Positions 81-4,785 of a DNA stretch of 4,785 bases are shown here, piece after piece. The notes under the pieces are model-generated. The model did not search any database. It worked only from the letters and a program-made list of their open reading frames with translations, and had not been told where the DNA came from. The stretch comes from a virus (lineage: Duplodnaviria; Heunggongvirae; Uroviricota; Caudoviricetes), in the IMG/VR virus record IMGVR_UViG_2706794693_000003; one strand, written 5' to 3'. A program made the position numbers and the translations under genes. Each line of letters begins with the position of its first letter. Position 1 is the stretch's first letter.

Positions 81-1237
81 TTAACTGATCGGCATTACAC
101 CACCGGGACGCGGATTCATATCTTCCAGGTCGCGGCAGTCATTGGAAGAGTAAATTCCCCAGTTGATCCCGGTGGCGTAGGCTTCAAAACGGGACTTCAT
201 ATCCCCGCGCAGTAACGCCCCGGCGTTAAATTTGGCGTAATAAACGCCCTGCTTACTTTTTCGTACCAGTCCGGTGTTGATCCGCTGTTCGATGCGGGTC
301 AGATACGGCACCAGTGAATAGTTGATAAATCCCAGCCCCAGCTCTTCGATATTGTTGAAGGTGGCGCGATCGGTGTTCTGCACCATGTGCAACGGCACCC
401 GGAACAGACGACAGATTTCTTCCAGCTGAAACTTGCGGGTTTCCAGGAACTGACTGTCCTCGGCGTTCAGCGCCATCGACTTCCAGTCCAGCCCCATTTC
501 CAGAATCATCGGGCGGTGAGCATTGCCAAGCCCCGTGTGACACTCCTCAAAATCTTTCTTCAGACGCTCGTAAGCATCCGGCGTGAGCTTTTGTTCCGTA
601 CGCAACACACCGGATGTCACCGCACCATTACTAAACAACCTGGCACCGTGCTCCTCGGTTGCCGCTGCCAGTGAAATGGCCTCACGCGCATACGCAATGG
701 GATTCAGCCCGACAAGTCCATCCAGCGTCAGGGTGCGCACATGCCAGATTTCATTCTGGGTCAACACATCCACGGAACCATCCGGAAACGTCACCTGATA
801 AACCGGCTGCCACTGGCTGTTCAGCTTCGGTTCCACACAGCCCGGATCTATCGGAAGAAGCTCCACCACTTCTCCCAGTGCCTTTACCTTGTAGGCGTAA
901 AAATTCCCCCGTAGACACAGGCAGACAATAACCAGCTCCCAGAATTCCTGCGGTGTCATGTAGCCATTAGGTTTTGCCGAAACCAACTTATGCAGTCGTT
1001 CATCCACCGCCCGTGTTTTCAGGGTACCGCTGATTTTGTAGAGACTGCAGGGCAGCATACCAACAGACTCTGCCAGCACCCTGACGCAAGAATAGACCGC
1101 CGTCAGGCGCATGGCCCGCTGGCTACTGATCCGCTTTCCGGTATAGGTGTCGTATGACAGCCCGATAGCATCAGCAGTTCTGCTGGCGTGGTCACCGGCA
1201 CATCGCTTTTTCGTTGAAATAATCCCGAAAAGAACAC
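81..1237 (-). CDS. Phage portal protein, HK97 family; N-terminal region apparently frameshifted (possible pseudogene or sequencing error)
   Basis: Long minus-strand frame ending at TAA 81-83. Translation from about residue 58 of the track ORF onward (GLSYDTYTGKRISSQRAMRLTAVYSCVRVLAESVG...) looks like an HK97-type portal, and it sits directly after the large terminase. The track ORF 81..1328 starts at a TTG and its first ~28 codons overlap the small membrane gene out of frame, giving an implausible peptide. A GTG at 1235-1237, 6 nt after GGAGG (1244-1248), opens a different frame reading [24 protein letters not shown]..., which fits typical portal N-termini, but that frame stops at 1103-1105. 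Details are in the findings. Confidence 0.8.
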
Positions 1238-1419
1238 TATTTACCTCCGCCGACAGACTGCCGTGTACGGTCGAGATATCGCGCCACCAGCCACGACCAG
1301 AACAGGCACAGCGCCCCGGCAACAACAAAACCCGCCGGGGGATAAATCAGCCAGGCACCATACGCCAGCAAAAGCGCACCCAGCACGCCCACCAGAGGCG
1401 CGAGAATCAGCATGATCAT
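1237..1419 (-). CDS. Small hypothetical membrane protein (60 aa, two predicted transmembrane helices), between large terminase and portal
   Basis: ATG at 1417-1419 preceded by GAGGT with 5-nt spacing, starting 11 nt after the terminase stop. Product [60 protein letters not shown] has two hydrophobic stretches and a charged C-tail. Codons are E. coli-typical (many CTG, GCG, GTG). Its TAG stop (1237-1239) overlaps the candidate portal GTG start by 1 nt. From memory, a 60-aa gene (ymfR) sits in the same position in the K-12 e14 prophage; sequence identity was not verified. Confidence 0.65.
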
Positions 1420-1430
1420 AATTACCTCAG

Positions 1431-3164
1431 TTAAAGCGAGCGGATCCCGTAGGACTCAATGTGGTCAGACAGCGTGTCTTCTTTCTCGTACAGCATGGCT
1501 CTGCCAACCGCCATAATCAGCGCAACTGCACCATCGATTTTGTTTTCCGCCTGCTCTTTGACGGGTTTCACCACATCATCGTTACCCGGCATGTTTTTGC
1601 CGACCACGTTGCCGATACACCAGGTCATGATGGGATTGCCGTCATGATGAAAACGTCCCGATTCAATCGCTGCTTCCAGCTCTTTCATCGGATCGGACAT
1701 ATTGGTGAAGTTCTGGACGATAGTGACGGGATTCAGGTCTTCATCAGCAAGGTCATGTGACAACCCGGTCGCCCCGAAGGGGTCGATGGGTGACTCACTG
1801 ACCGGGCTGATTTTGTTCGCCGCTTTGGCCTCCTCGAGGATGTAGCGATAATCCACCTCCGCACCATCGGTAACGGTCAGAACGCCCATTTCCACCCATT
1901 TCTGAAAGCGTTCGGCTGTCCGTCGATCTTCATTTTTCTCGACGCTGTACACCGTGTCATACGGTACCCAGAAACGCGGGGCCACACTGTAGTAATGCGT
2001 TTTACCGTCAATCTCGCGGGTATAAAGTCGCGCCATGCTGTTCATATCCAGCTTACGCGCCAGGTCAAAGGCCAGAATGCACGGCTGCCCCTCGAACTGC
2101 TCAAGGGTCAGTGATTTATCCTCGCAGCTCTGCCAGCTCACCAAGTTGAAATACGCCGAACGCGCCGACACCCAGATATTGAGGTGTTTTGTTTTAAAGA
2201 CGTTTGCCAGACGGGCGTTATTTTTCGCACGCTGCTGCTGACTTAACAAAAATTCGCGATAAACCGACACGCCAATATTTGGATTGGCTTTTTCCAGCAC
2301 CTGCGGGCCGGTCCAGTCGTCACCTTCATCAACGGTATAGATGATCCCGAACAGTTCATCGTTAGGCACCGAGCCGTTGAGCATCTCGATGACTTCCCGC
2401 CGCTTGTCGTAGCACGGCCCCTCAATGTTGTACCCGGCGGTGGTGATGGCCCACATCAGTGGCTGACGTCGCGCCCCCATCCCGGTAAGCATTGTGGTAT
2501 AAAGCGCATCGGTGGCATGCTCGTGATATTCATCAACCACGGCACAGTGGGGTGATGAACCATCACCTGGGTTGCCGATCAGCGGTTCAAACCGCGCGCC
2601 ATCCTCCGGACGGTTCATGTTTGAGGCGTTAACCTCAATCCCGAACGCTTCCGTCAGCATGGGTGTGCGTTTACACATCAGTCGCGCCGGGCGAAAGACT
2701 TCCCACGCCTGTTTCTCTGTCGTGGCACCGGAATACACTTCCGCGCCAAACTCGTTATCACAGGCAAAACAATACAGGGCAACACCGGCAGAGATTGCTG
2801 ATTTGCCGTTCTTACGGGGGATTTCGGTGTACACCTCCCGGAAGCGGCGCAACCGGGTGCCTTTATTGACCCAGCCAAACGCACAGCAGATCACAAATAG
2901 CTGCCACGGCTCCAGCGTGATGGGCATCCGTTTGAATGCCCACTCCCCCTTGGTGTGCGGCAACAGCTGAATAAATTTCGCGGCCCGTTCAGCCAGGTCC
3001 TTGTCGAAGCGGTAACGAAACGACTTACTTTTTTCCGCCATCAGGTCATCAAGATGGCGCTGGCAGGCCTGAATCACAAACTGGCAGGCAACAATCTTTC
3101 CGCGCACGACATCCCGGGCATACTGATTTGCAGCATTTACGTTGGGGTAAGATTTCCGGCTCAT
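1431..3164 (-). CDS. Phage terminase large subunit (Terminase_1 / HK97-like), 577 aa
   Basis: Uninterrupted 577-codon ORF. Walker A-like motif [10 protein letters not shown], Walker B-like CAVVDEYHE, and a C-terminal nuclease-like region with conserved acidic residues ([19 protein letters not shown]...). The ATG at 3162-3164 overlaps the upstream terS stop (ATGA), indicating translational coupling. Confidence 0.93.
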
Positions 3165-3513
3165 GATTCGATAATTTTCAGAAACGGGTTAGTGGCTTTC
3201 TTCTGCCCCGCCAGGCCAATCAGACGCTGGCGGCTGCTGGGGTCGAGTCCGAGCATTGCCCCCGTGCTGCTCATCTCGGACTCCTGTTCTTTTTTGGCGG
3301 TCAGCTCCGGATTTTTGACCCTGCCGCCCATTGCACCGGTGATGGTGTTGCCCTGTATGGCAATATTTTTCACGGCACGTCGCCAGAACTCATAGGCCAC
3401 GCACCACCGCTCAAGTACCGCCAGGTCAGTCACGCACAGCAGGCCCTGACCGCAGAGTTCTTTGGTTGTCAGTTGCCACATGATCGTGGCGAGAGGGAGA
3501 TCTTCTTCAGCGA
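3161..3513 (-). CDS. Phage terminase small subunit, P27 family; visible C-terminal 116 aa only, N-terminus lies in the N-run
   Basis: Readable translation ...[116 protein letters not shown] resembles P27-family small terminases (recalled from memory). TGA stop at 3161-3163 overlaps the terL ATG. The true start is masked; estimated total length about 150-180 aa (inference). Confidence 0.75.
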
Positions 3514-3765
3514 NNNNNNNNNNNNNNNNNNNNNNNNNNNNNNNNNNNNNNNNNNNNNNNNNNNNNNNNNNNNNNNNNNNNNNNNNNNNNNNNNNNNNNN
3601 NNNNNNNNNNNNNNNNNNNNNNNNNNNNNNNNNNNNNNNNNNNNNNNNNNNNNNNNNNNNNNNNNNNNNNNNNNNNNNNNNNNNNNNNNNNNNNNNNNNN
3701 NNNNNNNNNNNNNNNNNNNNNNNNNNNNNNNNNNNNNNNNNNNNNNNNNNNNNNNNNNNNNNNNN
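3514..3765. other. Run of 252 N (masked sequence or assembly gap)
   Basis: Direct observation: positions 3514-3765 are all n. The 280-aa track ORF 3161..4003 reads through it as X residues and is therefore an artefactual fusion of two genes. Confidence 0.99.
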
Positions 3766-3766
3766 T

Positions 3767-4003
3767 TTTCGCCTCGCTCACCACACCGACACGCAGACAC
3801 AACTGACACAGACCTTTATCGCGCTTCAGAATACGGGCACGAATCACCGTCCATTTTGAGCCATAGCCACGCTGGTGGCGGCTCAGTCCGCGCTGGTGCT
3901 GCACCCAGCCTTCACCGCGATGTTTATCGCAGTAACCCGAACTGTCTGTGGTTGTACCTGCACATCCACGCTTACGGCAGGCACGTGGGATTAGTGATGG
4001 CAT
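3767..4003 (-). CDS. HNH endonuclease, packaging-associated (HK97 gp74-like); visible N-terminal 79 aa only, C-terminus lies in the N-run
   Basis: ATG at 4001-4003 preceded by GAGGT about 6 nt upstream. Translation MPSLIPRACRKRGCAGTTTDSSGYCDKHRGEGWVQHQRGLSRHQRGYGSKWTVIRARILKRDKGLCQLCLRVGVVSEAK... has the Cys-rich zinc-binding N-terminus and basic region typical of phage HNH endonucleases found just upstream of cos and terS. The catalytic HNH motif would fall in the masked part. Confidence 0.8.
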
Positions 4004-4045: not shown

Positions 4046-4510
4046 CTACTTAATGCACTGAGTGCGGATATACTCCTGTGCCCCTTCCAGTTGCATCTGC
4101 ATCGTCATCAGCCGCTCTCTGAGGGTGAAATAATCCCGTTCAGCGGTGTCTGCCAGTCGGGGGCTGGTTGCATTATCCACGCCGGAGGCGGTGGTGGCTT
4201 CACGCACTGACTGACAGACTGCTTTGATGTGCAACCGACGACGACCAGCGGCAACATCAGCGCGCAGAGTTTCATTTTCAGCTTTCGCATCAGCTAACTC
4301 CTTCGTGTATTTAGCATCGAGTGCATTAACATCACGCTGTCTCTGCTGCATGTCAGTAATGGTTGCGTTCGCCAGCTTCAGTTCTCTTGCGTTTTTGTCG
4401 CGCTGCTCTTTGTAGGTAATGGCGTTATCACGGTAATGATTAACAGCCCATGACAGGCAGACGATGATGCAGATAACCAGAGCGGAGATAATCGCGGTGA
4501 CTCTGCTCAT
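4046..4510 (-). CDS. Rz: Rz i-spanin (inner-membrane spanin), about 154 aa
   Basis: Translation [154 protein letters not shown] is near-identical in pattern to lambda Rz as I recall it (N-terminal TM helix, coiled-coil periplasmic domain). I place the start at ATG 4508-4510, which overlaps the endolysin TGA stop (ATGA), rather than the GTG at 4520-4522 used by the ORF track. Confidence 0.9.
4108..4290 (-). CDS. Rz1: Rz1 o-spanin (outer-membrane lipoprotein), 60 aa, fully embedded in Rz in another frame
   Basis: ATG 4288-4290 preceded by AGGAG (4298-4302) with 7-nt spacing. Product [60 protein letters not shown] has a signal peptide with lipobox VVGC (Cys20) and a penta-proline stretch, as in lambda Rz1. 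Tandem TGA TGA stops. Confidence 0.88.
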
Positions 4511-4785
4511 TGCTGCCCCCACAAACAGACTTCACGCTCAATCTCACGACGGGTCATCAGCCCTTTCCATTGCTTACCGCCAGCATATGTCCAGCGACAT
4601 AGCTGGTCACATGCGCCTTTGATATAGCCCTGGTTTATTTTGCGAAGAAGCGTCGATGTTCTGAAATTGCCAGCGCCCACGTTGTAAACGAACGAGTAAA
4701 GAGCGCCGCGCGTTGTTTCCGGTATATCGACTTTGATGTACGGGTTAATTTGTCTGGCGACAGTGGCAAGGTCTTTATTCAGGAG
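4507..4785 (-). CDS. Phage endolysin (T4-lysozyme-like GH24 lysozyme, R21/RrrD-like); C-terminal 92 codons only, 5' end beyond the window
   Basis: Minus-strand translation of 4510-4785: [92 protein letters not shown]. This matches my recollection of the C-terminus of lambdoid R-type lysozymes of E. coli prophages. The frame is open to the window edge. The position directly upstream of Rz/Rz1 is the canonical lysis-cassette order. Confidence 0.85.

Follow-up and report, generated by a model that had tools for sequence, protein, structure and literature searches.

A gene of the ymfR family, set between the large terminase and portal genes, encodes a predicted inner-membrane hairpin

We analyzed a stretch of 4,785 nucleotides from a tailed phage (Caudoviricetes; IMG/VR record IMGVR_UViG_2706794693_000003), referred to here as the window, and in it a small open reading frame (ORF) of 60 codons between terL, the gene for the large terminase subunit, and the portal gene. 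The ORF lies on the minus strand (1419..1237), from an ATG at 1419-1417 to a TAG at 1239-1237. It is almost certainly an allele of the gene known as ymfR, phiP27 L37 and phiKO2 gp3, a member of PHROG 502, and a real late-operon gene for a predicted 60-residue helical hairpin of the inner membrane. The gene is not new. More than 1000 E. coli genomes have it annotated as ymfR, and phiP27, ST64B, the Sf phages and phiKO2 as a "membrane protein." It is thus already known and annotated, and its function is as yet unpublished.

Identity, selection and predicted fold

Megablast placed the region in 1599 of the 5426 complete E. coli genomes. Its RefSeq annotation, also in K-12 e14, is "ymfR: protein YmfR," with "terminase large subunit" on one side and "phage portal protein" on the other. 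The small protein is identical to K-12 e14 YmfR (WP_000605606.1) at 58 of 60 residues, with two substitutions in the tail, R53Q and Q54S, and to phiP27 L37 at 59 of 60. The original prediction, made from the sequence without database searches, had named ymfR of e14 as a gene in the same position, and this was correct. YmfR, phiP27 L37, ST64B Sb3, the "membrane protein" of SfI, SfII and SfIV, and phiKO2 gp3 are the same gene, with the same length, the same slot between terL and portal and the same TAGTG junction. The terL of the window is e14-like (98-99% identical) yet only 77% identical to that of phiP27, so the module is a mosaic. The portal gene downstream is intact in phiP27 and K-12, whereas in the window it is frameshifted.

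PHROG 502 ("membrane protein") matches the small protein with an E value of 2.8e-28 over residues 1-55 of 60, and it is matched by all 84 members of a diverse family set. A search with the family profile against 1.84 billion representative proteins returned 431 clusters (50% identity) at E<=1e-3, mostly of 50-70 amino acids. The strict form of the motif (S/A)YGAW(L/M)IY-x-PAG(F/Y)I-x-x-G occurs in 53 of the 148 best hits retrieved and a looser form in 111; the small protein itself carries a GAW-x-IYPPAGF turn. Isolated phages with the gene include phiP27, ST64B (sb3), SfI, SfII, SfIV, 118970_sal3, phiKO2 (gp3), PY54, Yersinia phages YeP1-3, Marinobacter AS1 and Burkholderia phages. This reach far past E. 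coli prophages went unmentioned in the original prediction, as did the minus strand and the portal frameshift; its statements about the sequence itself were accurate. When compared with Pfam, NCBIfam, PDB sequences and PADLOC, the small protein gave nothing above threshold. We rejected sub-threshold matches to TctB, DUF2244 and RseC as generic hydrophobic similarity. Two records with apparent Gram-positive hosts, L005 (a metagenome-assembled genome labeled "Bacillota bacterium," JAEWTL010000102.1) and OR844959.1 ("Enterococcus phage Efm 3-10," 1764 nt), carry a terL-ymfR-portal region whose proteins are 94-99% identical to those of an enterobacterial prophage; contamination or wrong assignment of the records is the probable cause, not a Gram-positive occurrence.

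With 49 ORFs of 30 amino acids or more in the window, the ORF is not significant by itself; its conservation takes it beyond chance. We pooled Nei-Gojobori counts over 38 distinct enterobacterial nucleotide sequences to obtain the ratio of nonsynonymous to synonymous differences per site (pN/pS). The sequence pairs are not phylogenetically independent, so the figures are descriptive, and the contrast between frames is clear: pN/pS is 0.28 in the annotated frame and 1.10 and 1.59 in the other two sense frames. Within the gene, it is 0.23 for the first transmembrane (TM) segment, 0.13 for the loop and 0.38 for the second TM segment; the last 60 codons of terL, at 0.22, are comparable with the small gene. 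The small gene is under frame-specific purifying selection. Together with the conservation, this bears out the earlier view that it is a real gene and not a chance ORF. An antisense ORF of 95 amino acids (1147..1434, plus strand) spans the whole small gene. We discarded it as a shadow ORF, since its pN/pS is 1.30 and its frame is open in just 36 of 58 distinct sequences, being interrupted in 22.

AlphaFold2, given the family alignment, predicted two helices (residues 2-25 and 27-56) with a mean predicted local distance difference test score of 86, and hydropathy indicated two membrane segments at about residues 2-24 and 31-46, with a grand average of hydropathy (GRAVY) of +1.15. Both predict a hairpin, in line with the two-helix membrane protein proposed originally. 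In an alignment of the 84 members, G21 and G35 are invariant, and G30 (83/84), G14 (80/84), P28 (74/84), W23 (73/84) and Y26 (66/84) are conserved. The conserved glycines on both helices suggest tight packing, either within the hairpin or between copies. Lysine and arginine residues average 1.8 per family protein before helix 1 and 2.2 after helix 2, but only 0.21 in the turn. The positive-inside rule therefore predicts cytoplasmic ends and a periplasmic location for the conserved turn. Nucleotide-level constraint best explains the conserved C-terminal G-G-(K/E/D), because its codons form the Shine-Dalgarno sequence of the portal gene. A Foldseek search with the AlphaFold2 model gave no PDB match, and in BFVD only uncharacterized phage proteins, none at E<=0.001; a two-helix hairpin holds too little fold information.

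Coupling to the portal gene across phages

The small gene is tightly embedded between its neighbors. The terL stop (TAA, 1433-1431) is separated from the ATG of the small gene by an 11-nt spacer, CTGAGGTAATT (1420-1430), whose GAGG is retained among enterobacterial relatives. The final codons of the small gene, GGC GGA GGT AAA TAG, contain the Shine-Dalgarno sequence of the portal gene, and the first G of the portal GTG (1237-1235) doubles as the last base of the TAG. Diverged relatives preserve GGAGG, GGGGG or GGAGA at this site. Everything the original prediction had read from this geometry was found in the sequence: the start 11 nt past the terL stop, the strong ribosome-binding site, the last codons bearing GGAGG and the TAGTG overlap. 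The geometry argues for coupled translation from terL to the small gene and on to the portal gene. The small gene and the portal gene would be transcribed as part of the packaging/head transcript. Ribosomes terminating on terL could restart 11 nt further on, at the small gene, and those translating the small gene would release at the TAG that overlaps the portal GTG by one G, with the GGAGG 6 nt before this GTG. Given the stop/start overlap and the embedded GGAGG, we propose that the small protein and the portal are made together. An Rfam scan of the window found no RNA family.

In intact relatives, a TAA stands in the portal frame two codons 5' of the GTG (GGCGGAGGTAAATAGTG), and the portal therefore cannot be translated through the small ORF. 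Read-through of the portal in another frame is thus ruled out for these relatives. The original prediction had set out beforehand what would speak against the gene, namely a lack of homologues in this position, a lack of coding signal or translation of the portal through the region. Instead, positional homologues exist, a coding signal is present and the TAA blocks portal read-through.

Of 139 loci, collected only by their similarity to the small protein, 128 have the gene order terL, small gene, portal, which agrees with the earlier suggestion of a conserved, uncharacterized component of the packaging module that has no published function. The slot is kept even where TerL is only 20-23% and the portal 24-35% identical to those of the window, with the small protein at 43-55%. 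At nearly every distinct junction, the small-gene stop and the portal start overlap by 1 nt (TAGTG, TAATG, TGATG) or 4 nt, or lie 0-3 nt apart. The remotest homologues with downstream sequence (L016, L119, L134 and L136) have a PF04860 portal directly 3', as identified with Pfam, while their upstream neighbor varies: other terminase types are found there, and in L134 an unrelated ORF. In L135, the small gene lies downstream of a Terminase_4 small subunit gene, and the contig stops short of the next gene.

An insertion offers a further view of the two junctions. In L123, a reverse-strand gene for a 162-residue 4HBT (hotdog) thioesterase (2403-2891, minus strand) lies between terL and the small gene; the overlap of the small gene with the portal gene is untouched, and a near-identical environmental contig, L116, is without the insert. 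A similar gap of about 0.4-0.6 kb between terL and the small gene occurs in L121, L127, L129, L130 and L133. On position and strand alone, the thioesterase gene resembles a moron-type insertion. In a small sample, portals that follow the small gene often start M-F-F-x-G-(L/M)-F or M-x-G-L-F-G-S-L, whereas the portal of HK97, a phage without the small gene, starts MEEPKYTIDL; the N-terminal motif and the small gene may co-occur.

A tblastn search with the portal gave 2071 phage records of this portal family, of which 16 were sampled. Gp11 of mycobacteriophage Halley, annotated "membrane protein," matches PHROG 502 with an E value of 3e-17 and occupies the same slot, with a 4-nt overlap with the portal gene. 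A two-TM ORF is also found in the slot in Clostridium phiCT19406C (gp35), Bacillus BtiUFT6.51-F, Vibrio pVa-4, Vibrio K341 and Ralstonia YO018_1. The slot hairpins fall in PHROGs 502, 7105, 1142, 4810 and 26072, which show weak cross-hits among themselves; the Ralstonia and Vibrio K341 versions cross-hit PHROG 502 at 4e-6 and 2e-4, respectively. Follow-up scans found the arrangement at 3/3 Halley-like, 10/10 Ralstonia-like and 74/75 Bacillus-like loci. In phage YYZ-2008, the slot is taken by an unrelated, soluble small protein, and an ORF scan of the unannotated records of Klebsiella Kp4866-6 and Ralstonia YO089_1 found no hydrophobic slot candidate.

The Bacillus ORF is an unannotated one of 53 amino acids with two TM segments (MG710484.1: 2333-2494, equivalent to L148:1017-1178), lying in the apparent "gap" between terL and portal; it matches PHROG 1142 with an E value of 1.6e-14 and is kept in 76 IMG/VR loci. 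The Bacillus and Clostridium versions (PHROG 1142/26072) have a 16-nt spacer before the portal gene and no overlap. With PHROG 502, hmmscan gave an E value of 0.04 for the Bacillus ORF and listed no hit for the Clostridium protein. We treat both as analogues or possible remote homologues, not as members of the family; their homology to PHROG 502 is no more than suggestive. L183 (IMGVR_UViG_2687453486_000012) is the sole Bacillus-type locus in which the portal gene lies about 1.7 kb past the small ORF and not 16 nt, so something has been inserted between the two.

The gene is thus attached to HK97-family portal starts from enterobacterial prophages to a mycobacteriophage, and it is nearly always directly upstream of the portal gene. 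With about 430 clusters, purifying selection and a conserved, predicted periplasmic turn, the family is among the larger phage families without an assigned function.

Possible functions of the hairpin

The portal gene is the sole constant partner of the small gene, and we therefore favor, tentatively, a portal-linked role for the protein as a membrane accessory factor. The hairpin would insert in the inner membrane, probably oligomerize through its glycine-rich helix faces, and serve as a membrane site or chaperone for new portal subunits in ring assembly, prohead initiation or packaging. Since HK97 does without the gene, any such role would be auxiliary, helpful but not universally required. 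A parallel is gp40 of T4, the membrane-bound chaperone of the gp20 portal initiator, likewise encoded by a phage and proposed to work on the portal at the inner membrane (PMC9958956). This likeness is functional only. In T4, gene 40 is not adjacent to gene 20. A cofactor of portal assembly or packaging would add a membrane step to a head pathway that is usually seen as cytoplasmic. It is possible, though we consider it doubtful, that the hairpins of PHROG 502, perhaps with those of 7105, 1142, 4810 and 26072, make up a single, ancient superfamily of membrane proteins coupled to the portal, whose members nucleate or chaperone, at the membrane, the assembly of HK97-family portal rings or packaging. 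Such a superfamily would span phages of Proteobacteria, Actinobacteria and perhaps Firmicutes, and membrane-assisted portal initiation, so far a matter of T4, would be widespread among HK97-type phages.

Several points weigh against a portal-linked role. Adjacency to the portal gene may merely reflect a tolerated insertion site. Pairwise identities among 77 unique loci did not separate co-evolution with the portal from co-evolution with TerL (Spearman 0.85 versus 0.86; partial 0.54 versus 0.58); this test is undiscriminating, and we therefore rely on the insertion and replacement cases for the portal linkage. The slot is empty, with terL abutting portal, in HK97, Aeromonas AsXd-1, Vibrio 1242, Xanthomonas OP1, Streptococcus Javan244 and an Acutalibacteraceae phage, so the protein is dispensable for this head type. 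The relation of the Firmicute slot-mates to PHROG 502 is weak, with an hhalign probability of 6-9%. Membrane assembly is not known for HK97-type proheads, and a literature search gave no experiment on, or function for, any family member. The papers found mention ymfR solely in e14 deletion lists, an induction table and a first-round overexpression screen, and as an integration site. Loss of e14 removes it without consequence (e14 deletion literature), and it has been used as a neutral integration site (PMC9145139). In favor of the portal-linked role, as a sign of late or induced expression, the sole expression data found show e14 ymfR going up by log2 4.5 with other e14 genes under an SOS-inducing drug (PMC10012262). 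An ASKA clone of ymfR, producing a tagged protein, grew with 0.1 mM isopropyl β-D-thiogalactopyranoside (IPTG) in the screen (PMC10299036). As one gene of 60 codons in genetically tractable phages, the family is a cheap and well-defined experimental target.

PHROGs places 502 in the category "moron, auxiliary metabolic gene and host takeover," which points to a membrane moron or superinfection-exclusion factor that would block phage DNA entry or alter the envelope in the lysogen or infected cell, like HK97 gp15 or P22 SieA. The gene is present in some HK97-type modules and not in others (HK97, AsXd-1, OP1, Vibrio 1242, Javan244), though elsewhere it stays in its slot over very deep divergence, and the conserved, predicted periplasmic turn could touch an incoming tail protein. 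Exclusion factors can also be small inner-membrane prophage proteins within structural operons, as is HK97 gp15, which likewise comes from the late structural operon of an HK97-type phage (PMC3594210). The hallmarks of a moron are its own promoter, its own terminator and deviant GC content (PMC3594210). HK97 gp15, in the tail operon, has all three, whereas the ymfR-family gene shows no such signals and is deeply conserved beside the portal. A consensus scan of positions 900-1900 found no sigma-70-like promoter on the minus strand and no terminator-like site on the strand of the small gene. Its GC content at third codon positions, 0.672, is within the terL range (0.650 +/- 0.060 in windows along terL). 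The total GC content, 0.607, compares with 0.545 +/- 0.031 for terL and about equals the highest terL value of 0.606; the excess lies at codon positions 1 (0.672 versus 0.574) and 2 (0.475 versus 0.405) and is an effect of amino acid composition. Both junctions are tight or overlapping, and the opposite-strand thioesterase insert of L123 leaves the one with the portal gene intact. Exclusion genes evolve fast and are patchy, whereas this gene, under purifying selection, has stayed in a single slot in phages of Proteobacteria and in an actinobacteriophage. The PADLOC defense models gave no match at E<=1 for the small protein and three distant slot-mates, and no host phenotype has been reported for a ymfR deletion, in a study without phage challenge (PMC9145139). 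All told, the database label "moron" is probably wrong for this family, and we regard a moron or exclusion role as unlikely.

The predicted topology also recalls lysis proteins. With two predicted TM helices, N-in/C-in ends, a short periplasmic loop, a basic C-terminal tail, glycine-rich helices and late expression, the protein could be a class II holin, a pinholin or an antiholin-like two-TM protein that times lysis through late membrane permeabilization; class II holins resemble such hairpins. A related intact prophage, however, has a full holin-endolysin-spanin cassette, with a separate annotated holin, upstream of the packaging genes, where the window has Rz/Rz1, and a holin role is unlikely because this complete cassette is already there. 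The lysis genes lie directly upstream of the HNH-terS-terL packaging genes and not beside the small gene, which in each lineage examined is linked to the portal and not to endolysin. Relatives begin MIL, MFL or MLL, so Met3 of the "MIM" start is not a conserved residue, and no charged residue precedes it. Growth of the ASKA clone under IPTG points the same way, weakly, as the protein was tagged. We give a lysis-timing role little credence. Among the roles offered by the original prediction, "moron" and "lysis timing" are thus weakened, and an assembly-linked role is mildly favored.

The inferred co-translation with the portal would also suit a virion-associated or ejected protein near the portal that aids DNA passage across the inner membrane at the next infection, and some phage ejection proteins are hydrophobic, as this protein is. 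A 60-residue hairpin with almost no soluble part would, however, insert in the membrane of the producer cell. The family occurs in both myoviruses and siphoviruses, whose entry machineries differ, and our literature search found no virion proteome that names the protein; we hold ejection to be very improbable. Least credible of all is that the reading frame is only a translational spacer that sets portal expression and encodes a functionless peptide. The portal ribosome-binding site does lie inside the ORF, the stop/start overlap is conserved, and nucleotide constraint accounts for the terminal G-G-x. Yet the amino acid constraint is strong over the gene and strongest in the loop, the signature motif is common to hundreds of clusters, and in HK97 terL is coupled straight to portal, with no such ORF.

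Four GenBank records, ON470603, ON470584, ON470580 and PQ793804 (hits H40, H46, H47 and H34), call the ymfR-family gene "head-tail joining protein W"; the phages so labeled are vB_EcoM-720R4, 689R6, 606R7 and Salmonella phage As1. In the gene order of lambda, the small gene for gpW likewise lies between the large terminase and portal genes. Lambda gpW is soluble, whereas the ymfR family is a predicted, strongly hydrophobic two-TM hairpin, and neither gpW nor any other Pfam model was found above threshold in the 84 family members. The name is best read as a positional misannotation.

The broken portal gene and other features of the window

The portal gene of the window differs from those of phiP27, E. 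coli GF131 and K-12 e14 by a 1-nt deletion (one G; CTGGCG to CTGC in the alignment), and its GTG frame therefore ends after 44 codons. The same deletion is present in four IMG/VR contigs (L018-L021), each 100% identical to the window over 3.5 kb, so this is an allele of the lineage and not a one-off read error. Judged from the sequence, a normal portal is probably beyond the reach of this prophage lineage, in which the coupling signals are intact and the downstream partner is broken. A long frame at 81..1328 in the ORF list of the window was rejected as an artefact of the deletion.

Table 1. Positions of the small gene, its protein segments and its neighbors in the window
Feature	Position	Strand	Evidence
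ymfR-family coding sequence	1237..1419	-	60 codons plus TAG; ORF list, PHROG 502, identity to YmfR/L37, pN/pS
GAGG Shine-Dalgarno sequence of the small gene	1425..1428	-	within the terL/ymfR spacer, 5 nt 5' of the ATG
Predicted TM helix 1 (residues 2-24; G11, G14, G21)	1348..1416	-	summed Hessa dG -1.8 for residues 1-19; AlphaFold2 helix 2-25
Turn IYPPAG (residues 25-30), center of the signature (S/A)YGAW(L/M)IY-x-PAG(F/Y)I	1330..1347	-	column counts; loop pN/pS 0.13
Predicted TM helix 2 (residues 31-46; invariant G35)	1282..1329	-	AlphaFold2, hydropathy
Basic, variable, predicted cytoplasmic tail (residues 47-60)	1240..1281	-	alignment, junction table
GGAGG Shine-Dalgarno sequence of the portal gene	1244..1248	-	within codons 57-58 of the small gene, 6 nt before the GTG
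Portal gene, 5' end	1103..1237	-	GTG-started frame, 44 codons, stop at 1103-1105; ORF list
1-nt deletion site in the portal gene	1175..1176	-	alignment with intact portals; same allele in L018-L021
Rest of the portal coding sequence	81..~1175	-	Pfam Phage_portal PF04860, E=2.6e-107; out of frame with the start
Large terminase subunit gene, terL	1431..3164	-	Pfam TerL_ATPase and TerL_nuclease; ORF list

Further upstream, the presumed cos region is hidden by a run of 252 N at 3514-3765, along with two gene ends, the 3' end of the gene for an HNH endonuclease and the 5' end of the one for a P27-family small terminase. The HNH-terS fusion at 3161..4003 in the ORF list is therefore artificial. The identical IMG/VR contigs have 376 nt where the window has the 252 N (L018:531-906), so the masked length does not match. 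The minus strand also carries an Rz/Rz1 spanin pair at 4046-4522 and 4108-4290, with Rz1 in another frame within Rz (Phage_lysis, E=3e-52; Rz1, E=6e-20). The pair is preceded by the 3' end of an apparent endolysin gene at 4507-4785, a putative assignment made without a domain scan.

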